Source: a virus (Duplodnaviria; Caudoviricetes). From it: DNA of 64,000 nucleotides. A program made the position numbers and the translations under genes. The first letter of the stretch is position 1. Each line of letters begins with the position of its first letter. Of the stretch, positions 4,098 through 61,318 are shown one piece after another. The notes beneath the pieces are model-generated. The model made no database searches. It had not been told where the DNA came from and was given only the letters and a program-made list of their open reading frames with translations. Where the stretch lies: positions 1 to 64,000 of IMG/VR virus record IMGVR_UViG_3300020048_000088, one strand, 5' to 3'.

Positions 4098-6089
4098 ATG
4101 CCCACCCTTGTCTCCACAGGTCAGATCACCATCGTCGATGCCAATGATGGCGTCAACGGAACGCGAGTGGGCTTCCTTGAGGTCTACCAGTGGGGTGCCG
4201 CAGCGCCTGCCGCAGCGCCTGCACTGCCCACTGGCACATCCACCTACACCTGGGCGACTGGGGCTTTCACGGCGCCCTCGACTCCCGCTGGCTGGCGCCT
4301 GACACCGGGTGCTGCGGTTGTGGGGCAGACTCTCTGGGCCACGTCCGTCAGAGTCAGCAACTCCCTGACAACTTTGACTTCCTCTGTCACATGGGCAGGC
4401 GGCAGTGCTTACGCAGTGGGTGCGGCGGGAACGAACGGGGCGACGGGGCCGTCTGTAGTGGTCAACGCCAACCGCACAACAACCTTTACAGCCACTGATG
4501 AAATCCTTGATGGCTCACAGGCTGACATTATCTTCACCGCTACTGTCAGCGGAGTTACTTCGCCAACCTACGTCTGGACGTTCAGCGGGTTTCAGACCAG
4601 CCCCACCAACTCAGATGCTGCAACTCAGACGATCACATCAGACCAGTTCGGCAACTCCAAAGCTGCCACGGTAACCTGCACCGTGGGCACCCACAAAGAC
4701 GTGACCTCGATTGTCAGGTTGCAGGGGAGCACTGCAGCGGCGGGGGCGACGGTAAACATCTTCACCAGTGGCCTGCTTTCCGCTCGACCCACAGGCGACA
4801 ACGGCGACACCTACTTCGCCACCGACACGCAGGTGCTGTACCAGAAGATTGCAGGGGCGTGGACGTCTTCGTCGAACCTGCAGAACCTCTCGGACGCCGC
4901 AGACGTGGGTGAGGTTTACAACAGCAGCGGCACAATCGTAGGTGGTGACGGGCGCCCGGCGGGTGTCAAGTCGATGTACGGCAGCGCTGTGGTTGCTGAT
5001 GTCTCCTATCAGGATGTAGCCAGAACCATAGTCAAGCTCTACAGCGCGACAGACTCCAGCACTGGGATGGCGTGGTCTGCGTTCAGAGTCAACCCATCGA
5101 CCACCTACAACATCTTCATACGCATCAAGTCCAACGTAGCCGCTGCATCGGGCCTGTACTTCAGGATGTACGAGCTTGACACTGAGATGCCGGTCGGCAC
5201 GACCTACATCCACAACGGGACCGGGGAGTCGGGGGGCACCACAGGCACTCGGGCGATGTCCACATTTCGGGAGAACCAAGCGATCACTACATCGTGGGTT
5301 GAGTTCAACTTCTCCTACACTCCGACAGCCACAGCCAAGTGGGTATCGCCGTTCTTCCTGAATTGGACCGGCATGGGCCTCACGGAACTTCACGTCGACA
5401 AGGTCGTCATCACCAGTTTGGCGACAGTGGGCGCAACAGCACAGCAGGCCACAGACATCGCGGATCGCGTTTCAAAATCCAATGCGTCCATACTAAGCTC
5501 GACAGTTAGCCTGGATGCAACAGAGGGCGCAGGTTTCAGGGCGGGATCACTGACATGGAATGCTTCTGGTGAGAGAGATGACGGGCATGGTGTTGCCATG
5601 ACGCCGGGGGGACTTGTTGGCTACAAGCCGGATGGCACCAATACCTTCAAGATTGACGCCACCACGGGTGATGTGTACTTTGCTGGCACATTAGCCGCTG
5701 GTACAGCAACATTTGATGCCATTGTTGGAAACTCTTCCACTGAGTTTATTTCTGCGACGCATATGGTCAACAACAATACATGGGGTGCCTATTATTTTGA
5801 CATGCGACACCCGGGGGTTGCCAGTGTTTTATTGACTGTTGGATTCAATACATCCAATGTAACAAATAGTACATATTACTTCTATTCAATTATTACTTCA
5901 TCCGATGTAGCGCCAGCAACACTAGATGGCATTACACGGCAAACAGGCGCAGGTGATGCAACGGTAAGCTTGACAATGCCAACGGTAAGCAGGGATATTG
6001 GGCGGTACTACATATGGGTTGCCGCAGCAATTGGATACGCCGGCCCGGAGCACAAGTTCTCCTTCACGGTTCTTAGGAGTTATCGCTGA
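4098..6089 (+). CDS. Tail fibre / receptor-binding protein
   Basis: AAGGAG RBS. N-terminus nearly identical to that of the preceding protein. Contains a GAAGTNGATG collagen-like linker, a CBM-like middle domain and an AT-richer C-terminal tip, and is followed by a fibre chaperone. Confidence 0.75.
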   Translation: MPTLVSTGQITIVDANDGVNGTRVGFLEVYQWGAAAPAAAPALPTGTSTYTWATGAFTAPSTPAGWRLTPGAAVVGQTLWATSVRVSNSLTTLTSSVTWAGGSAYAVGAAGTNGATGPSVVVNANRTTTFTATDEILDGSQADIIFTATVSGVTSPTYVWTFSGFQTSPTNSDAATQTITSDQFGNSKAATVTCTVGTHKDVTSIVRLQGSTAAAGATVNIFTSGLLSARPTGDNGDTYFATDTQVLYQKIAGAWTSSSNLQNLSDAADVGEVYNSSGTIVGGDGRPAGVKSMYGSAVVADVSYQDVARTIVKLYSATDSSTGMAWSAFRVNPSTTYNIFIRIKSNVAAASGLYFRMYELDTEMPVGTTYIHNGTGESGGTTGTRAMSTFRENQAITTSWVEFNFSYTPTATAKWVSPFFLNWTGMGLTELHVDKVVITSLATVGATAQQATDIADRVSKSNASILSSTVSLDATEGAGFRAGSLTWNASGERDDGHGVAMTPGGLVGYKPDGTNTFKIDATTGDVYFAGTLAAGTATFDAIVGNSSTEFISATHMVNNNTWGAYYFDMRHPGVASVLLTVGFNTSNVTNSTYYFYSIITSSDVAPATLDGITRQTGAGDATVSLTMPTVSRDIGRYYIWVAAAIGYAGPEHKFSFTVLRSYR

Positions 6090-11602: not shown

Positions 11603-11645
11603 ATTTCAATCAACCCCGCCTGTTTAGGCGTTTTTGGGGAGCCTT

Positions 11646-14024: not shown

Positions 14025-14055
14025 AACCACTTAGAGCGATCTGAGTGGTTTTTTT
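14025..14055 (+). terminator. Intrinsic terminator downstream of the tRNA fragment
   Basis: AACCACTTAG-agcgat-CTGAGTGGTT followed by a T run. Confidence 0.75.
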
Positions 14056-15280: not shown

Positions 15281-15517
15281 TCAGGCCGTAGCTGGCCTGC
15301 GCACACGCTTCTGACGTGGCCCACCGCCCATGCGCGCGGCGGTTTGCTGGATGATGACGCGCTCAATGTGCGTCAACACGTCCTTCTTCATCAGCACGAA
15401 TGCCCGGCCAACCCTGCCAGCAGGGAGGGTCCCGTCGGCTATCAGGTCAAGGATTGTCCGTGAGTGGACATTCATCATGGCGGCAGCCCCGTGGATGTCA
15501 AGCGTCATGTCATTCAT
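15281..15517 (-). CDS. Excisionase-like HTH protein
   Basis: LDIHGAAAMMNVHSRTILDLI..G.LPAGRVGRAF (HTH_17/MerR-like); convergent with int. Confidence 0.75.
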   Translation of the reverse strand: MNDMTLDIHGAAAMMNVHSRTILDLIADGTLPAGRVGRAFVLMKKDVLTHIERVIIQQTAARMGGGPRQKRVRRPATA

Positions 15518-15735
15518 TTCTTGGCTCCCAGAAACGACTTCAACCAGACGATCAGCAGCGCGGCCGCCACAAACGGGAGGAACGGCGGGTCAATGAGCAT
15601 CTCGGGGCCCTCCGGCCACAAACTCGACCAGGCGTAGCCCCACAGGCCCCAGATGGCCGCAATGATGCCGCCGTACACAACCAGCCCGATCAGGACGGTC
15701 ATAACCCACTCGAGGGGTGACAGGTTCAGCTTCAA
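15514..15735 (-). CDS. Small membrane protein
   Basis: Two hydrophobic segments; coupled to its neighbours. Confidence 0.6.
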   Translation of the reverse strand: MKLNLSPLEWVMTVLIGLVVYGGIIAAIWGLWGYAWSSLWPEGPEMLIDPPFLPFVAAALLIVWLKSFLGAKK

Positions 15736-48576: not shown

Positions 48577-51500
48577 TTTGGACTCCAAAGTTTGGGCAAA
48601 ATCGCCCGGGGTTTGCCAGGGGTTACTGGACTTCTCTCAACTCAAGCTCCGTGTTTCCATGCTTGGTGGCGTTGGTCTCCCACACTTCAAGGTTGAAGTA
48701 CTTGAGCAGGATGCGGATGGTTTCCTCGATCTGAGCTTTTGTGGCATCGTTGCTCCCCGGCTGGAATAGCTCCGTCTCTACGACAGGCTCGTCGTTTTGG
48801 TTTACGAAGGTCATAGCTGCGGGCCTTCCACGTCCTGAGCATGCTGAGCAAGCGCTCGCATGAAGCCCGAGAACTCCCTCGCGCTCAGGAACTGGAACGG
48901 CTCCCACTCGATCAGGTTTTGATCTCGCATGTAGCCCACCGGGCTGTCAGTCGCCGTGATCGCATCAAAGTGCTTCACAGCTTCCTCTTCAGTCACTTCC
49001 GCGTTGATCATCTGGCGGAAGGCGAACACCTTCCATTTGTCAAGCAGCTTCATACTCTCTCCAGTCATAGGTTGGCAGCTCGTCAACGACGTCTGCGTCT
49101 GCATCGAATCGAAGCCAGTTGGCCTCGTCACCATAGAGGTCACGCAGCCAGGTCAGGATCGGGATCGTCCACACATCATCCACGGGGTCGTCCGGCAGGT
49201 ACACGAACCCGCCCCCTGGGTAGGTCGCTGCCAGACCCTCGAAGGAGACCAGCGAGTGTGTGCTGGGCATGTGCTGGGTGCTGATGACCGGGATGGTCAT
49301 CACCCACATTGGTTTGGTGTTCATGATTTCTCCTTAGTAGCTTGCGTCAGTCGGTATCACGCCAAACGCTGCCTTGGCCAAGTCGTAGATGTCGTTCAGA
49401 CTCACCCGGACCGCGGGCTTGTCGGTGTTGTCGAAGGCCACCGCCCACCCGCTGATGTAGCGCAGCTTCTCGGCGCCGGCCTCCATCAGCACGCAGACCT
49501 CGCCGTCGGCGAGGTGCTCACTGATGTCGGATATGAGGTCGATGTCGATGCTCTCGTCGGTAGCCTCATCGTAGTAATACGCTGGGAAGCACCCTTCATC
49601 GGGGTCGTCGCTGTAGATCATTTGCATATCCCCTGCGGGGCTGCTCACCAGACCGGGTACGCTTTCGACCCAGGCGTCGAACGCCGCAATGTCCTTCACC
49701 TTGAAATAATTGCTGCGCGCGGTTCCGTTGAAATTTGCCATGTTGAACTCCTTGGTTATTTGTCCGTTTGCGACTCAATGAACGACTGGGCGTCGGCGGC
49801 GTGCCGAAAATCGGCAAGCCAGATTTGCACCAGCTCGCGCTTTTTGGCGTAGCAGCAGTAGACGCTGCTGACTTCCATATTGGTCTTCTGTTCGGTCTTG
49901 ATTACGAGTTTCATGTGATCTCCAGTTGGATGTCTTTGGTGTGTTCGGCAAGTTCGTAGTCGAACACGCTCTTGGCCTTGAGGGCAGCCATGAACTCATT
50001 TGAGGTGAGCTGTCGGCGGTCCGTTTCGGCATCGCGCAGGATGTTGTAGCAGCGCTGGTATTCGAGCAGTGTCTTGAGTTTCATATCGTTTCTCCTTCGT
50101 AGTCGTACTTGGCCATGGGTTCGCCGTCTTGGAGGATGACGACAGGCTCACCAGCGCAGCGGCCGTACCTGGCCTTGCTTTGGCGTTTGTACTCACCGTA
50201 CTGGCGCAGCGCCTCGTGGTAGTCGTCGCCGGTGTAGGTGGTGCCGATGTTGCCGACAATCACTTGGTATTTCATGTTCGTACGCACTTGAGTGCGCCTC
50301 TTTTGGTGAGTGAAAGAACGTAGTCGGGGTACTCGTGGATAAACTCCTCCGACTTGGCGATGTGCAGGCTGGCCTCGGAGTTCTGGCCATAGCGCTCAAG
50401 GTCCATGGCCGACTCAAAGAACGACGCCTTGGCGGTTTTCAGGCTTGGGTGCGGCTCGAACTCCGGGTACAGCGTCCCGGCGTAGCAGAGATAGCATTTC
50501 ATTGCAGTCTCTCCCATCTACGTTGGGCGTCAGCACAGATCATGACCAGCGCCTCGCTCACCGGTGCATAGGTATCCATGACGCTGATGCCGTGGTACTG
50601 AACCGTGCGCTTGATTCCAAGCAGGTCGCACAGGTTCATCAGGTAGAACGGCAGCGTGGCGACTGTCAACTTGTACCCGTCAGTGGCGAGGCTCATGCGC
50701 TTGTTGGCCCACTCCAGACACTTGACCAGATGCTTGAGCTGGTCGATTCCGGCACTGTGAACGTCGTGCGCCTTGAGCTCGATCTGAACCTGACCGTCTT
50801 TGAAGACTGCCAGGCGCATACCGAGGTCCTGCCAGCACTGGGTGTGGTACTGGGGCATGTACCCCTCAGCTGCCTGCTGGGCGCGGAAACTGACCCGGGT
50901 GCTGTCCACAGAACAGACGCTCGGGCCATAGTCGGCGCTGCCGATGCGCTCGCAGGTCGAAGACTTGCCAGGCCACGTCGGGATGAAGACTTCGACGCCT
51001 TTCATACTGTCACCCCCTGCGCATACCAAGGGGTTGTGGCTTCTGGTTTGTGCTCGGCCTGATCCGCAAGGTTCCACAGGTGTTCGGCCAGCGCCTTGGC
51101 CTGTTCGGGGCGCATGGTGTGGGTGAAGTTCAGCCCACCAGCGTAGGCGCTAAGGCTGATCAGGGCTTTGCCATCAAGTGCGTTGTTGGGCAGGACGCTG
51201 AGCTCGTAGCCGGGGTCTGTCCAGTCGAGCCAATTGGAAAATTTCATGGGAACTCCTAAGGGTGGCGCAAATCGCGCCGTTGTTGTGGGGCATGATTGCC
51301 CCGGGGTTACTCAGCCAGGTGGCTGAGGTCTTTCAGGTGGCCCCTGCACAAGAGCAGGACGTGGTAGTCCTGCGGGTCCACCCAGTCGTCGTCGCCGGGG
51401 TCGAGGCTCCAGCCGTCCGAAGTCTTGGCTTCGTCTCTTGCAAGGCTCACAGCATGTTTTAGGCAGCAGGACTCCACATAGGCCAGGTAAGTGTCCTTGC

Positions 51501-52588
51501 CGAACTCGCTGGCGATGTAATCGGGCCGCAAAAGCAGTACGGTGTAGTTCATGACAGGTCCGTCTCAAGGCACCGCAGCTGCAGGATTGCTCTCTCAAGC
51601 ATTTCCTTGAACTCCCCCGCGGACTCGGCGTCGTGGGCTTCGTCCATCAGGAACCTGAACAGTCCGTCGCCGCAGGTTTTGAGCTCCGCCTTGGTGTTGA
51701 CGTACAGGAGTTCGCCACCACAGTAGTGGGCACGGACGAGGATTTGGTTGGGGTTGAGTTTCATGTTGTCATCCCCACCAGCGATTCAAGGTCCAGCGCC
51801 GCGGTGAATGGGACAAGCCCACTCTCTTGGCCCGACATGTCAAGGATGACGCCCTCGTTGGTCACAATCACATGGAGGTCGAGAATCTCATCGTCATCCT
51901 CCCCAGCCTCACGGAAAATGAACCGGATTGGGTTGTCAAGGTCGATCCACGTCATGCCGTCGTCGATTGAGAATTGGTTGAGTTTCATGATCGGACTCCG
52001 TCCAAAATGGTCAGGTTGTTGGTGAAGCCTTCCTCGCTGGTGTGCTTCAGGCTGAACAGGACGATGAAGGTCGCGTCGTCGTAGATGCGCAGGGTCGACC
52101 CGCCGATCCGGTACTCCGGCTCGAACACGGCCAGCGTCGCCGGGTAATCCTCAGCGTCCTCGTCCTCGGTGAACAGCTGGTAGCCGGCTGCGTAGTGGAT
52201 GTTTCCGCTGTGCACGCCCATCTCCTTGAGCCGGGTTGCGATTGCCGGAATGCGCTCCAGCCACTCGTCGCCAAGGTAGACCTCGACGTGCGTCGGGTTC
52301 TCGGCCCACTCGACGTTGCATTGATACTCAGACTTGAATGTGATCACGATATGAACTCCCCTGTGGGTACCAGGCTCACCATGTGGCGCAGTCGCGCTGG
52401 CAAGCCGAATTTGCGCGCAGCCATGAAGCGCGCTTCATGGTCGGTTCTGGCCCACACGTCAACCGACGCGCCAGCCCATGTTCCGAAATACTTTCTCATT
52501 CTGAACTCCAAAACCTGTGCACAAAAGCATGCATCAGGAAAGCGAAACGCTTCGGATTGGGCGGCATGCCACCCAATGTGAAACGAAC

Positions 52589-53503
52589 TCAGTCTTCGTT
52601 GTCAAGCCATTCGCCGTGCGGCCCTTGAACCTTGCCTGTCATCTTGGCCAGCTCGTTGGCGGCCTCCGCAAATTCAGGGTCGCCAAGCTGTTGGAACGCC
52701 GCGTTGCAGGCTACCTGGATTTTGAGCAGGTTGATGGTGGTGCCGTCCTCCATGGTCAGGATGCCACCGCTGATGGAGCAGGGGATGGTGCGGGGTTCTG
52801 GCTTGGTAGCGTTGATGAGGTCCAGGCAGTGTCCACAAGGGTCGTCGTCGAACTCATAGACCTCCTGAATGCGCCGGCGCATCTCAACGCACTCCGCCGG
52901 GGTGAACAGCGGACCGCCGTCAGCTCCCACGATGGACTCCGGCGAGTCCTCCGGGTGGAACAGCAACCCGTCAGCGTTCAGCTGGTCGAAAAACGCGTGG
53001 GCACCCGCCTTGGACGTGATCGGCGTCTTGAAGTAGGGCTTCATTTCGGTCTCGTCAAGCTCCCAGCACCAAGCCCCGGCACCAACGTCGAACACGTCCA
53101 CCCAACCCTCGCCCTCGACCCAAATGGTGTGGAGCTTCCAAGTCTCCAGCTCATCCACACCCTCGACCCTTGCCGTCCACGTTTTGAACTCGGGGTCGTA
53201 CTCAAACTCCCCATAGGTGTTGGTGTTGGCGTTCGCCATTCTCTGCATCTCGCAGGGGGTGAAGCTCGGCATCGCCCAGCCATTCCAGCGGCTCCCGTCG
53301 CTGTAAGCGCGGTAGGGCGCGCCTCCGTCAATCGACACCAGCACTGGCCCATAGGGCCGGACCTCGATGCAGGGCTTGAACTTCTTGAAGAAGTCTTCGG
53401 CGCTTGTTTCAATACGAAACCCCCCTCCCGATGCCCAGAACGCGATTGGGGTGTCTGGGTCAATTTGGACCCGAACCCCGTCTTCGTCTTCAAATTCAAT
53501 CAT
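52589..53503 (-). CDS. Multidomain acidic hypothetical protein
   Basis: RWNGWAMP.FT domain fused to an FHPEDSP-containing domain; GGAG RBS. Confidence 0.55.
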   Translation of the reverse strand: MIEFEDEDGVRVQIDPDTPIAFWASGGGFRIETSAEDFFKKFKPCIEVRPYGPVLVSIDGGAPYRAYSDGSRWNGWAMPSFTPCEMQRMANANTNTYGEFEYDPEFKTWTARVEGVDELETWKLHTIWVEGEGWVDVFDVGAGAWCWELDETEMKPYFKTPITSKAGAHAFFDQLNADGLLFHPEDSPESIVGADGGPLFTPAECVEMRRRIQEVYEFDDDPCGHCLDLINATKPEPRTIPCSISGGILTMEDGTTINLLKIQVACNAAFQQLGDPEFAEAANELAKMTGKVQGPHGEWLDNED

Positions 53504-53775
53504 TTTATTTCTCCTTCGTCTTCGTCGCAAAAGTCGCACTGGGATTTCCAAAAGGGAACCCGAATCTGCTTGCACTCCGGGCACAGGTGGTCGAAGCGTC
53601 GCATGAATTTCTTAAGCCAGTTCATTCGACCTCCAACTCGGTCGTGAACAGTCGCCCTTCGGCGTAGGCATCAAGCAGCATGATTGCCAACTGGCAGTTA
53701 TTCTCAAAGTAATCCCTGTCGCTCTCCATGTAGCCTGGGTAGCGTCCTTCTTCGTAAGTGCGACGGGGCTTGTGT

Positions 53776-54159
53776 TCAGGAAAGCTCATCAGGCACCTCC
53801 ACTGCGTCACCCAACTTACTTGCCACATAGCAGCGCATGGCTGCTACCAATGGGGTTGAGCCCTTGTACCGTGGTGCTGGCATCGCTCTATCGTCCCACG
53901 CCTCCCACACGCCCCACCCGCAGAAATCCATGCCGACGTGCTCACGCTCAATGATCGGGCCACCTTGTGCCCAATCGGTTGAAGGTGAAAATCGCTTACC
54001 AACGTAATGAGCAACAGCACAACCAACTCTTTTCTCTGGGCATGGCACCAGATTCCTTTCAACCACCGCTCCGTTTCTGATACGGTGGTTAATGCCCTGT
54101 ATTTCAGCCACAGCCCAGTCAAGGGTCGCGCCCGTCAGTTCGCTTGTTTTGATCTTCAT
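53776..54159 (-). CDS. NinX/DUF2591-family protein
   Basis: KTSELTGA.LDWAVA, FSPSTDWAQGGPIIERE and TPLVAAMRCYVASKLG. Confidence 0.85.
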   Translation of the reverse strand: MKIKTSELTGATLDWAVAEIQGINHRIRNGAVVERNLVPCPEKRVGCAVAHYVGKRFSPSTDWAQGGPIIEREHVGMDFCGWGVWEAWDDRAMPAPRYKGSTPLVAAMRCYVASKLGDAVEVPDELS

Positions 54160-56507
54160 TCGACCTCCGCATAGATTTCGCCCGGGAATCTCCCCCACGG
54201 GCGGGGTGCCTTGTGAATGGCGGCGCCGTAAGTCATGGCACGCACCGTCGCGATTTGGCGCCCCTCTGGCGCCCAGAACAGTTTCCAGGTTTTCATGTCA
54301 GTCTCCTCTGATTCCGGTAAGCACTTCGGCGGCAGCACGCTGCCACATCATCGTGTGGGTGCCCTTGGTGCCGTCGTTGGCCAGCAGCACAAGGTCGTAC
54401 AGCTTTGGGGCTGCCTTGATCAGTCTGGCGTTGGCATCAGCGTTGGCCCCGATGACCCTTGCAAGGTCTCGCCCGGAGCTGCCAGCGTAAATCTCATACT
54501 CCGGGGCGTAGTCGGGCGTGCCAAGTCTGCTGACGTACCACGGGCCTTGGGTGTGATTGCTCATTTCAGAATCCTCCTGTGAGTTTGACGCTCAGGCCGT
54601 CATGGTTGGCGGAAAATGTGAGACCCTTGCGCACGAGGGACTCAATCACGTCCATGAATCGATCGTGATTGGGGCAGACAATTACCATCCCGCCCATTGG
54701 GACGGGGCCACTCCCAATGGGCGGGCTGGGGCTGTCGGTGCTGCAGCGGTTGAGGGGTTTCATACCAGCACCTCCACTGGCGCCTTGCGCAGCATCGCCG
54801 GCAACACCCCCATGTAGGCCTTGCCAAACCCGCGGTCTTCAAAGAAGACTTGGCGCTCATCACCCACATCCCGAAACACCTTCAGCACCAGATGCGGACC
54901 CACACCAAACTTGATGCAGGTGTCCTTGGTGAGGTTGACCCGTTCCCGATCGATCTCGAGCGTGGTGACCAACTCGTGATCCCTCACCCGCAGGGTGATG
55001 GTGGGGTTGTAGCTGGTGGGGCAGTTTGCGTACTCCACGTAGAAAGAGTTTTCCATGTTGTCTCCTTAAGTCCAAGCCAAACCCATGGCGACCAACTGCT
55101 CGCCGCCGTAAACCTTGAGCTCGCCGCAGTTGGGGCACTTGTACTTCTGGGCATCCGGCTCCACGCCGCCGGCGATTTCGCCGCAGGCAAGGCAGAAGCC
55201 ATCGTCACCCATTTCCATCGCCAGCTCGAAGCTCGGCTTGTACTGAAGCTTGCCGCTTCCTGCGCGGTACTCGCGCACCTGATCTTTAATCATGTTTGGA
55301 CTCCAAAACCGATATAGAAAAGCCTATATCGGAAAGCTTTCGCTTCGTGATATGGGGCACGCCCCACATCCGGAAACGGCTTACAGTGGCGGGAACCCGC
55401 TGCGGTACTCGGACTCATCCACCCCGTACCGGTACCCCACCCACCGGTAAGCCCCGTTGGGCTGCCTCCCACACTTGTAGAAAAACCCGATTGGGTCTTC
55501 CACCAGCGACAGGGCTGCGTGCCTTGCGAACTCCGGGTTGGCATAGGCAAGGTCGATCACCTCCTTGGCTGTCAGGCGAACGCTGTCGGGATGCGCCACG
55601 AGCTGGGCTTCCCAAAGGTCGACCCGAGCGCGCTCAATTTGCTCCTCCGCGAGGGCGAGGTTGACGATGTTGGGGTTCATTTCGCCCCCTCCAGCAAGTC
55701 GCGCAGGCACAAGTTCACCCCTGACCAGATTTCGTGACCCTCCGGCGTGCGGAACCACTCGAACATGCCGATGATCAGATGGTCTTCGGGCTTGCGCTCC
55801 AGACGCGCCAACTCACAGATGTCAGCACGCTGCGCTGCGATCACAGCGATTTCCCGGGGCACGCCCAGCTCGACAAGGCGCTCGATGTATTTGAGTTTCA
55901 TTTGGACTCCAAAACCGATATAGAAAATCCTATATCGGGCAGCTTTCGCTTCGGATTACCCAGCACGCTGGGCAATGTGAAACGGAATCAGGCGAGCAGG
56001 GCGGCCACCACGAGAATCTCCACGAGCAGCATCAGGGCGCCGGCAGCCCAGAACTTGACACGCGCGGCAGCGCTCCCCACCCTGCGGGAGGCAAGCGGGA
56101 CGTTGAGTCCCGACGTCATGTTGGGCGTCCAAGGTGTGTCAAGCTTGCGCATAGCGAAGGGCACATCGTGCCACATCCAGGTTTCGTTGTAACGGTCTTG
56201 TTTGCCCCATCCCCAATGATCTGTTGGCCACATATTGAACTCCAGTTAGGCACGGATGCCGTGTTTGTCGAACCAGTTGTGAACGTGGCGGGAATACTCG
56301 CCACGCTCCGAGAGCAGGGTGCCGATGGAACCCTTGAGGAGGCTCTCGTAGTCCTCCTCGGGTGCGTCCCGGTCAGCGATCGTCTGGGTGGCGTTGTTGT
56401 CGCCACTCATGATCAGGGACTCAATCGCATTGCGATGCGAGAAGCCGCGGATTGCCTTGGCGGACGCCAGCAGCATGACGTATTTGGAGTCGTTGATCAT
56501 TTCAGCC

Positions 56508-56948
56508 TCACTCCGCCCAGGTGCGAATCGTGTCGACGATGGTGCGAGAGGTATCGCAGTCCAGCCGGTACTGGTCGGCGAAGAACCGGTGAATCTGAAC
56601 GACTGAGATGCTGAACTCATCGGAGTCACGAGCCAGTCGGAACTCAGCAGCCGTGACCTGCAGCTCTACCTCCCGCTGGGGGAAGCTCACGATCACGCAG
56701 CGGTCGTCGTCTTCTGACACCGGGCAGCGAACACCCGTGAGAATCGTGTCAACCACACGCATGGCCTCGAACAGGCCGACGCCGTGCTGCTCACGGATGA
56801 ACTTGATACTGGAGACGCGCTGTCCGTCAGCCTTGCTGCATCGGCTGATCAAGGTGTGCTCGGCATTTGTGATTTGCAGGGTACCCACGGTGCTCGGGTA
56901 CGACACAACGTAGGTGCTGGCGTCAGAGTTGGGGGAAACTGAGGGCAT
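56508..56948 (-). CDS. Protein with a ribosomal L7/L12 C-terminal-like motif
   Basis: VSSIKFIREQHGVGLFEAMRVVD resembles the K..IK..R...G.GL.EAK..V consensus. Confidence 0.45.
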   Translation of the reverse strand: MPSVSPNSDASTYVVSYPSTVGTLQITNAEHTLISRCSKADGQRVSSIKFIREQHGVGLFEAMRVVDTILTGVRCPVSEDDDRCVIVSFPQREVELQVTAAEFRLARDSDEFSISVVQIHRFFADQYRLDCDTSRTIVDTIRTWAE

Positions 56949-57502
56949 GATTGGACTCCAAAATGTGTGCAAAACCGCACAATCAAGCGTCCTAAAAGCA
57001 GGGCGCTTGAGTGTGGGCCCCCCGCAGGGTGCCACTTTGAGTTTCAACTCCCCTTTGGGATTCGGCGCACGAACACACCGACGTACTCGCACCCATGCTG
57101 GGCGGTGTACAGCCACTCGTCCATCTGGCTCTCCGTCAAGTCGGTGTCGACGTGGATTTGAGAATAGCTCTCATCTTCGTGGTATGGGCCACCGTCCCGC
57201 ACAGCTTGTGTGGTGAACTGCCAGCGCAATTTGTGGCGCAGCTTGGCAGCGTCTTTCGTTTTCACGTCGATGCCCAGGTGGTGAATTTGTGGAGCTGTGC
57301 AAGGCTCCGAAGTCGGCACGGGGTTGGGGTGGGTACCAGATTTCATATCGAACTCCAAAATTAGCCTCAAAACAGAGGCGGCCTCAGTGTATGTGCGCTG
57401 GCACACGGTTTAAGTAATCCCCCCCCCATTTGGGGGGGGCTAGGGGTCTCTATTTTTGTTTATGCTTCGCGGGTTGACCTAGGTCAACCTGAAAGGGTTG
57501 AC

Positions 57503-58252: not shown

Positions 58253-59406
58253 TCATTGCGCCGGCGTTGGGCATCCCGGTCGACTTCGCGATGGCGCTCA
58301 GCCTTGGCCTCAGTCGCCGCGATCTGGGCATTGAGGGCAAGCTCTGCACCTGCTAGGGACGAGCGGCATCGAACCTGCTTCACAATCCGGCGCCCATGCT
58401 GCTCGAACGCGGTTCTGGCCTCGGTCAGCTTGGCAACAAGCAGTCCGTACTCAGGCTCGGGGCAAACCCTGATTCGGGACTGTGCCTCAAGCATTGCTTT
58501 GTACAGGGCGTCGTGATTGGCCTCGAAATCGGGTTCGGCGGCTATCTGCAAGGCCCGGATTTCGCGGGCCTCATCGCTCTGAGGTAGTCGTTGTGCGCTC
58601 ATATTGAGTCTTCTCCAATGAAAATGCCTAAGTCGAACCCCTCAAGCGCTCTTGCAAGCGCAGGTTGGCAGACGCTTCACTCAGCGCAGGGGTTCGGCTT
58701 AGGCACAGTGAAAGTCCCTGCCAAGGGACGGAAATCCAAAGATAGCACTATTCCGAATTGGATTCGGAATCGCTGAGGCAAGTGAGTCTCAAGGGTAGGC
58801 CCAAAAATGCAAATGCACCTAAGTAAGAAAAGGATAGTTATATTTAAATAATTAACTATTCTTACCTTATTGGGTTTCTCTAGCATCACTTTGGGGGAGG
58901 GGGGGTGTAGAGGTGCTTCTGCACTGATTTGAAGAAATCCTTGAAATCCTCAGGATTCCTACTGAAACTCAAAGTGAATTCCAAAATCACCTCTACAGGA
59001 GGGGTGGTATAAATCGCACTAGAGAACCTTGATTTGCCCCTAAACCTCAAAAACGCCCTAAAAAGTGCCCTTTTCGCCCAAAAGTGCAATCACGCCTTGA
59101 AGACTTGCGCAAAATTGCGTTTTGCACGGTACTCGGCCCGTCCAAGGCTTGGTTCGGGAGCTGGTTCGACTGTGAAGTCAGACAGGCATTCGTACGTGCT
59201 GAGGTCGATCACGCGGCCTGACTTGCGACGGGCTGCCCGGTCGGCGGTGTACAGGTTCTTGGTGGGCGCGCCAGATCGGGTGAATGTGCGGTTGCCATAG
59301 TCGTCAGCGACTGGCTCCATGACTGCGTAGAGACTCATCTCGTACTCCAAATTCACTGCGAAATTGCAGTCCGAATCCCACTTGAGAATGGGATTCAGAC
59401 TCGAAT

Positions 59407-60270: not shown

Positions 60271-61013
60271 TTTTGACTCTCCTTATGGGTGCAATTCACC
60301 CCCAATACTGACAGGGTCTAATGTCCGTGGTCAATCGCCAGGGAGCTATCAGTATTGGGGGTGGCCCGCTTGCGCAGGCCGGTGCTGGTTACGTCGATCC
60401 AGCTTCATGTCGAACGTGGTGTCCGAATGGTTACGGACTTGACAATGAATTGCTCGGGCAATCGAACCCGCCAACATTCAGGACGTGGTCTATCCTGCTG
60501 CGATCCTTGAAGCAGCTATCACCCCCAACATTGACGTTGTTGGGGCTTACGTGGTGCGATAACGGGCGCACCCCCGACAAGTTATTGAGCCGCTTACCCG
60601 AACGATTTACCAGCGTCCCCACTGTGCACACAGACCTATGGCAGGTTACGACCAGCTGTGGAGGGAAGGGGGATAGATATGGAACGTGATTGCTCACGGG
60701 CATCCTTGCGGATGCTTTAGTTGTCGTTGGGATAGTAGACACTCGCCAGCCCCGGCAGTTAGCCGGAACGGGGGTCTCGAACTTGTACGATTGGCCACCC
60801 AGCACGCGGAATCCCGGCGTACTCAATGGCCCCGTTTTGGCAAAATGCTATAGGAACACCCCACTCACGGCGGTGTTTATGGCGCACTGTGCCAAATACG
60901 GTTACACCCAAGCCGCCAGGCGCGATCACCGTGATTAGACGGAGTTATGGCGTGAGGCTTGAGTGAGAATTTAAATTGTGGAATTGACTACCGCCCCAAA
61001 AACGGTTACGCCG

Positions 61014-61236
61014 CCGCGCCGACTATCGGCGGGGCGCTTATGCGTGAAACCCGCGCCGACTATCGGCGGGGGTTACAGTTGCGGGGGTTTCGTTGCCGCG
61101 CCGACAGTGTATCGGCGGCGGGTAAAATGCCGCGCCGCGCCGCCAGTGTATCGGCGGGGGCGGCGGCAAAATCAAAGCGGATAAATGAAATTTCAAGGGA
61201 TAGCGCGAAACCCGCACCGACTATCGGCGGGGGTTT
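61014..61236. repeat. Five copies of a self-complementary CCGC(G)CCG..TATCGGCGG repeat
   Basis: Copies at about 61014, 61051, 61096, 61135 and 61211. Confidence 0.85.
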
Positions 61237-61318
61237 TAGCGTATCCGTTGCCCCATGTAATCACGGGGCGGCGGCGGCTTTTGCGGCGGCGGCGGGGGCG
61301 GCCATGTTGCAGCAAAGC

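Follow-up and report, generated by a model that had tools for sequence, protein, structure and literature searches.

The window analysed here is the first 64 kb of the 81,313-bp record of an uncultured phage (IMG/VR record IMGVR_UViG_3300020048_000088, labelled G000 where it has to be told from its relatives), and our subject is a family of intergenic spacers on its minus strand, three of which (copies A, B and C) are predicted to fold into a multi-hairpin RNA immediately in front of a start codon. The genome, which has a G+C content of 59% and 55-bp terminal repeats, carries its genes on the minus strand from ~64 kb down to 16 kb, and its structural genes on the plus strand. The early arm (64-37 kb, minus) holds some 70 small orphan genes and is followed by replication genes, including those for a ligase, an SNF2 helicase, a primase, PolA and SbcC. 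Most of the small early genes overlap their neighbor by 1-4 bases, and 45 of the 68 early-arm junctions are overlapping or shorter than 15 nt; the overlapping genes are presumably translationally coupled, and the arm resembles a set of long polycistronic units. Among cultured phages, those of Vibrio with genomes of ~83 kb come nearest, with protein identities of 25-28%.

Copies A, B and C are 87-89 nt long on the minus strand, and each makes up the whole gap between the stop codon of one gene and the ATG of the next. All three read, in order, CGUUUC, the stem-loop P1, GAAGCG, a mini-hairpin (P2), the hairpin P3, TTTTGGAGT, 4-6 nt and ATG; at the RNA level, the element thus ends with P3, then UUUUGGAGU, then AUG. 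Copy A (52588-52500) lies between a stop codon at 52591-52589 and an ATG at 52499-52497, with CGTTTC at 52585-52580, P1 at 52577-52556, GAAGCG at 52553-52548, the 3' arm of P2 at 52544-52540, P3 at 52538-52514 and TTTTGGAGT at 52513-52505. Copy B (55380-55294; stop codon 55383-55381, ATG 55293-55291) has CGTTTC at 55378-55373, P1 at 55370-55349, GAAGCG at 55346-55341, a mini-hairpin with a GAAA loop that extends to 55334, P3 at 55332-55309 and TTTTGGAGT at 55308-55300. In copy C (55987-55902; stop codon 55990-55988, ATG 55901-55899), the corresponding positions are 55984-55979 for CGTTTC, 55976-55955 for P1, 55952-55947 for GAAGCG, 55938-55915 for P3 and 55914-55906 for TTTTGGAGT. Direct reading of the minus strand bore out the coordinates and stems of the three copies given in a first-pass annotation of the sequence. 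The genes flanking A, B and C have no mutual similarity, which implies that the element is a module in its own right, rather than part of a duplicated gene. Copies B and C form direct repeats of 85 nt with 79% identity, one on either side of a two-gene unit whose genes are unrelated.

Consensus folding of the three copies with RNAalifold predicts 29 pairs, nine of which are changed on both sides; in P1, compensation is seen in six of nine pairs, although three copies, being paralogous, yield no proper significance value for this covariation. P1 forms 9-10 pairs in every copy although its stem sequence differs: between B and C only 10 of its 22 bases are identical, against 23 of 24 (96%) in P3 and 87% in the remaining columns. 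Compared with shuffled sequences, the single-sequence folds have z scores of -2.7 (A), -3.5 (B) and -4.7 (C). The strand on which this structure acts is indicated by two observations. Each P1 contains one G.U pair, whose counterpart on the opposite strand would be a mismatched C.A, and the sense folds of the three spacers are better than the antisense folds by 2.8-6.6 kcal/mol (for copy A, -32.7 versus -26.8 kcal/mol), the difference for P1 on its own being ~4 kcal/mol in favor of the sense strand. Together these support structure in the minus-sense RNA. The strand signal was taken from the curated helices and the sense/antisense energies only, a naive count of G.U versus A.C over nearby helices (28 versus 21) being too noisy for use. 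The observation made in the first-pass annotation is thus confirmed as real, and its inference of a structured sense-strand RNA as sound.

The arrangement of the helices may differ somewhat from the P1-P2-P3 layout first described, all parts of which are present, P2 being the less secure helix. CGUUUC can pair with GAAGCG to give an outer helix, P1a, that encloses P1 in a bipartite hairpin (P1a of 6 bp, a 2x2 internal loop, P1 of 9 bp). Both P1a and P2 need GAAGCG, such that the two pairings are mutually exclusive, and in copy C P2 has three pairs only. RNAalifold prefers the P1a-extended fold, whose advantage over the alternative is 3-4 kcal/mol in B and C, the two being approximately equal in A; in copy B the fold with P1a is 4.2 kcal/mol better than that without. 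Covariation does not discriminate between P1a and P2 because both are invariant in sequence. Bases of the stop-codon region can also pair with the downstream GGAGU(Y)C, with eight pairs in copy A (52581-52592 with 52501-52509) and six in copy C (55983-55988 with 55905-55910), copy B being without this pairing; it may close the spacer into a cloverleaf-like fold, which might serve translational coupling or be due to chance. When the rest of the genome was searched for sites that the P1 and P3 arms might target in trans, only chance matches with one mismatch were returned.

A covariance model built from A, B and C (R1) scores the three copies at 98.9, 103.8 and 107.2 bits, respectively, with the next best match in the genome at 23 bits, and finds no further full copy in this genome or in the four relatives searched. 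The full three-hairpin form is likewise absent among 35 IMG/VR pattern matches, with two pattern scans giving chance matches only, and one metagenome pattern scan gave chance matches only and no full copy. The Rfam search that the first-pass annotation had proposed returned no matching family for the elements, either at gathering or at permissive thresholds, even with E values up to 5. Because a 304-aa neighboring protein has homologues only in identical contigs of the same phage, there are no orthologous spacers for a proper covariation test. A looser version of the element had been reported at 56953-57050. The spacer there (copy D, 57043-56949, minus) is indeed multi-hairpin, ending in TTTTGGAGT and an ATG at 56948, with a G/C-rich hairpin, a hairpin of 10-11 bp with a U-rich loop and one of 5-6 bp with a GGUUUU loop; however, R1 matches it weakly (18.5 bits, E ~0.008) and its fold has a z score of only -1.6 against shuffles. 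Copy D is better described as a multi-hairpin member of a broader cassette family than as a fourth copy. The gene led by copy B (55066-55293, minus) encodes a 75-aa protein with two CxxC pairs of zinc-ribbon type, for which a pooled scan gave weak Pfam zinc-ribbon matches.

The broader family becomes apparent from the 3' third of A, B and C, i.e. P3, the U-run and GGAGU, which is one instance of a cassette heading ~15 gene blocks in this genome. The motif TT(T/A)GGAGT followed by a start codon occurs at 13 minus-strand sites between 59.4 and 38.7 kb (13 of the 14 occurrences of the motif in G000 are minus, and all those that precede starts are on the gene strand), and nearly all of these have a short hairpin, its loop rich in U, ahead of them. 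After the stop codon, the cassette has between one and three stem-loops, then a single-stranded tract poor in G, then the extended ribosome site UUUGGAGU(Y)CA and finally AUG. It is present in 11-12 of the 13 early-arm gaps of 32-95 nt, and therefore marks the start of each block that is uncoupled from the preceding gene. Use of this extended site is restricted to early genes that lead a block; sites of the AAGGAG or GGAGG type serve the others. Canonical single-hairpin cassettes, as matched by a second covariance model (R2) constructed for them, span 59641-38723 on the minus strand, with matches at 59641-59590, 57393-57341, 51292-51242, 48624-48571, 47433-47383, 43688-43637, 41419-41366, 40223-40175 and 38771-38723; R2 also matches within copy D (56951-56980, minus, 20.6 bits), and a further TTTGGAGT site is at 59351 (minus). 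At 51248-51306 (minus) two tandem canonical hairpin units with CCC/AAC and ACAAC-type flanks share one ribosome site, indicating that the hairpin unit can duplicate on its own.

The cassette is conserved well beyond this genome. Relatives were found by a primase search, apart from G006, which was found by pattern scan. R2 has 18 matches in G000 and 16 each in G002 (85 kb, 52% identity in the primase search) and G006 (71 kb, 63% G+C); TT(T/A)GGAGT occurs at 13 sites in G002 and at least eight in G006, in both cases exclusively on the gene strand (no forward sites, against 13 and 8 reverse ones, respectively). R2 is marginal in the fragment G001 (two matches, best E 0.014), and the more distant G003 (33% primase identity) lacks the cassette, with one R2 match at E 0.4. 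The early genes of G000, G002 and G006 have almost none in common, with the few shared ones in a different order, such that the cassette is kept before unrelated genes in two other phages. The few early proteins shared by the three phages comprise DUF7227 and three small orphans, without an informative domain or a link to RNA. A 70-aa ORF at the head of the early arm that seemed to be conserved was rejected, since it probably reflects a conserved gene on the plus strand, of which it would be the antisense shadow. The three-hairpin form is restricted to a single genome and represents an enlarged, lineage-specific version of a leader cassette that occurs clade-wide.

An alignment of 31 distinct copies gives the consensus AA-CCC, G-N-N-N-C, loop R-M-Y-U-U, G-N-N-N-C, AC(A)AC, UUUGGAGU, YCAAC, AUG. 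In this consensus the three middle pairs vary freely, whereas the loop, the two flanks and the outer (G-C) and inner (C-G) pairs are fixed. Pairing of the five-pair stem is present in 96.5% of cells, compared with 65% on shuffling and 35-56% when the partner strand is slid; 41 cells carry double changes where 13.4 are expected; and the covariation score is 0.60, which none of 500 shuffles reached, compared with 0.13 for shuffles. The fit of the alignment to R2 favors pairing, yet the difference from the shuffles is large. AAC and UUUGGAGU are 18-24 nt apart, and A, B and C lack the CCC and ACAAC flanks of the canonical cassettes. In both relatives some cassettes have an additional upstream hairpin that forms a near-perfect palindrome, each palindrome occurring twice with almost the same sequence, of the CCGTTACC type in G002 (~5405-5420 and ~83225-83240) and of the GCTATCG type in G006 (~15290-15310 and 15590-15610). 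Their appearance suggests a protein-binding site in DNA rather than a counterpart of the variable P1.

With roughly even confidence, we interpret A, B and C as enlarged members of a set of phage-specific intercistronic leader cassettes that act in the mRNA, combining stabilizing or attenuating hairpins with a standard start site. In the large copies, the bipartite P1a-P1 hairpin directly behind the stop codon would shield the 3' end of the upstream message or mark a processing site; P3 with its four U's could be a pause or leaky termination signal forming the 5' boundary of the downstream start site; and the fixed U-rich GGAGU site would allow fresh loading of ribosomes on the next gene block. 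That the stems differ between copies may reflect selection for pairing only, with identical repeats inviting mispairing or deletion. The data show the layout, the strand specificity, stems that stay paired as their sequence varies, and conservation in two other phages before unrelated genes; termination at P3, 3'-end shielding and ribosome loading are proposals as to mechanism. The first-pass annotation did not note the wider family: the elements are elaborated intercistronic leaders among ~15 cassettes and do not form an RNA family of their own, but 'processing signal or cis-regulatory RNA' is still a fair description.

A parallel for a processing role is in phage T7, in which the early genes are separated by RNase III processing hairpins in the intercistronic gaps of a polycistronic RNA. 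As with the T7 sites, several copies of an irregular hairpin with two helices and an internal loop lie just after a stop codon, but the predicted fold here has 15 pairs and a 2x2 loop, compared with ~20 bp of irregular duplex, having an internal loop at the cleavage site, for T7-type sites, and there is no sequence similarity with the T7 sites. The P3 hairpin has the likeness of an intrinsic terminator in that its 9-10 bp are followed by UUUU; it differs in that the U-tract is four bases rather than ~5-8 and runs into the ribosome site.

Several observations weigh against the leader interpretation. With 15 pairs and a 2x2 internal loop, the P1a/P1 helix does not reach the length of classical RNase III substrates. 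A terminator scan did not call P3, which has four T's in the eight bases after the stem where at least five is the criterion, and in the canonical cassettes a non-U spacer of 3-6 nt, AC(A)AC, separates the stem from the U's; the combination of four U's and a non-U spacer implies that termination is at most weak. The predicted accessibility of the start sites is 0.46 for cassette genes and 0.43 for coupled genes (p = 0.32), and with this equality the idea that the hairpins are insulators was rejected. The canonical stems contain no G.U pairs, which makes a DNA-level hairpin possible for them. Further, generic roles as stabilizer or insulator leave the conservation of the loop (R-M-Y-U-U), CCC and AC(A)AC in three phages unexplained. 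This conservation, along with the unremarkable accessibility, is the reason for keeping open a reading in which a specific factor recognizes the cassette.

Such a reading, which we regard as possible but not likely, is that P3 and the canonical hairpin are operator-type RNAs, i.e. binding or cleavage sites of a single regulator, of phage or host origin, that switches the class of early blocks jointly. A sequence- and shape-specific ligand would fit the fixed outer and inner pairs, the RMYUU loop, the CCC flank and AC(A)AC-UUUGGAGU-YCAAC, together with the free middle pairs, across the 31 copies from three phages, and would also fit the restriction of the extended site to block-leading early genes. 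The logic is comparable to that of T4 RegA and RegB acting on early start sites, or to that of coat-protein operators. T4 RegB provides a precedent for an extended, class-specific GGAG(U)-containing target in early start sites, although in the strong RegB consensus, which is unstructured, GGAG has an A-rich sequence on its 3' side (PMC3014915), whereas here GGAGU is followed by YCAAC. A search of 68 early ORFs, however, found no RNA-binding domain, whether RegA, RegB, N-like, Cas6-like or other, the phage yielded no RegB homologue, the shared early proteins offer no candidate, and A, B and C are without the CCC and ACAAC flanks. In its fuller form, which we hold only tentatively, this proposal would have the ribosome-site hairpin serve as the signal by which an RNA-binding regulator or nuclease runs the block-leading early genes as a regulon, with the alternative pairings CGUUUC:GAAGCG and GAAGCG:(C)GCUUU of A, B and C acting as a switch between read-through and processed or new RNA. 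A further class of hairpin RNAs in phage early transcripts comprises the processive antitermination elements, to which the first-pass annotation had likened A, B and C. HK022 put RNA consists of two stem-loops within ~70 nt, lies just downstream of an early promoter and acts in cis on RNA polymerase. Apart from the several hairpins in an early operon, it is the canonical hairpin that favors an antitermination RNA, its 5-bp stem and pentaloop having the size of lambda nut boxB. There are, however, fifteen sites per genome, each right before a start codon and beside the ribosome site of a block, as opposed to one or two behind early promoters, and no promoter was found near A, B or C; the loop is R-M-Y-U-U and not the GNRA-like pentaloop of lambda-type nut, in which boxB is accompanied by a boxA element and an arginine-rich N-type protein, no N-like protein was found, and features of contact with a partner protein or with polymerase are absent. 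The likeness to put, which was drawn from the hairpin count, is otherwise unsupported. The suggestion of a riboswitch-like leader fares no better, because the largest helix is hypervariable, there is no conserved ligand-type core, and no other genome searched has a homologue; neither type of RNA has a sequence or Rfam match, and we consider both very unlikely.

Among described systems, the nearest concept is the promoter-early stem-loop (PeSL) of T4-type phages (Arbiol et al. 2010, PMC2839356; Comeau et al. 2014, PMC4122927). PeSLs are likewise repeated stop-to-ATG spacers of ~50-100 nt among small orphan early genes, with a stem-loop followed by a Shine-Dalgarno sequence and start codon, and they are kept between related phages while the flanked genes differ, a property shared here only by the canonical cassette (G000, G002 and G006). 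They differ in that each carries a strong promoter, sigma-70-like and preceded by an AT-rich element, whereas no such promoter was detected here; moreover, the present phage is unrelated to T4, its stems covary within a fixed frame of loop and flanks, and the ribosome site is the most conserved part. The cassette is therefore a variant that works like a PeSL linker, and not a member of the PeSL family. A full PeSL-type mechanism, in which the stem-loop stops upstream transcription and a promoter in the same spacer restarts it, appears improbable. It would have the same layout as in T4-type phages, around unrelated small genes (PMC2839356, PMC4122927), the early strand offers no other promoter candidates, and phages without a polymerase of their own, such as YuA and 14-1, can use factor-dependent motifs that are not of sigma-70 type (PMC10914365). 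No ORF of the present phage is of a size to encode a T7- or N4-type RNA polymerase, nor was a sigma factor found. In all three large copies it is possible to draw boxes consisting of GTTTC(A/C) and, 17 nt on, a weak -10-like hexamer at the P1 3' end, with P1 as the spacer and P2 and P3 as a new 5' leader, but these match sigma-70 at 6-7 of 12 positions only, below the scan threshold. No sigma-70-type match of at least 9/12 was found in the modules or the early-strand intergenic DNA, and at 8/12 or above there was none in the three-hairpin or canonical-cassette spacers and three weak 8/12 matches elsewhere in the early-strand intergenic regions. Sigma-54 and ECF-type spacings, compared by eye with the cassette consensus, do not fit. 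In the canonical cassettes the hairpin is ~20 nt from the ATG and nothing is conserved upstream of AACCC, leaving no -35 region, while the would-be -10 falls in the variable stem and the distance from AAC to the ribosome site is not constant; a conventional promoter is hence unlikely. It may also be asked whether the cassettes persist as short homology for swapping, duplicating and deleting small genes, with expression a secondary role. Their retention in three phages with mostly different and reordered early genes, the B and C repeats around a two-gene unit, and the similar behavior of PeSLs (PMC2839356, PMC4122927) would be consistent with this. However, strict orientation, a fixed distance to the start codon and selected pairing argue for an expression function, and hypervariable stems lower rather than raise homology; as the primary explanation, recombination is unlikely. 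Leader cassettes acting in the mRNA remain the interpretation that we favor.

Other features of the genome are recorded here for completeness. Two hairpins in the late region on the plus strand (11617-11640 and 14025-14055) are each followed by TTTTT; the first follows a late gene and its hairpin and T5 tract run directly into GGGGA before the next gene, a junction which implies that the style of hairpin, U-run and ribosome site is general in this phage. At the head of the early arm (61000-61240, minus) is an array of near-identical G/C hairpins, CCGCCG-ATAGT-CGGCG, some copies of which are enclosed by AACCC...GGGTT and then followed by TTTC(A/G)CGC. The 487 nt between two early genes at 58603-59089 (minus) are without a convincing ORF and contain an AT-rich palindromic segment and several long hairpins, making this region a candidate for an early control region or origin. 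Beyond the window, the 9-mer GTGCGCAGG occurs four times at an exact spacing of 141 nt (76345-76768, minus), which suggests a tandem repeat within a late-region gene. ARAGORN found no tRNA or tmRNA.

The small early genes are the least understood part of phage genomes, and little is known of their expression and exchange except in T4, T7 and lambda. The overall results identify a clade of uncultured phages, ~70-85 kb in size and at most 28% identical in protein sequence to any cultured relative, that uses a compact cassette without a recognizable promoter. In combining a covarying hairpin with a conserved extended ribosome site, this cassette provides a testable expression signal, as well as a marker of gene-block boundaries for annotation. 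It adds, from beyond the T4 group, another case in which linkers are conserved while the orphan genes around them are shuffled, and its three-hairpin form is an unusually clear example of a helix that is hypervariable, yet always paired, inside a conserved frame.

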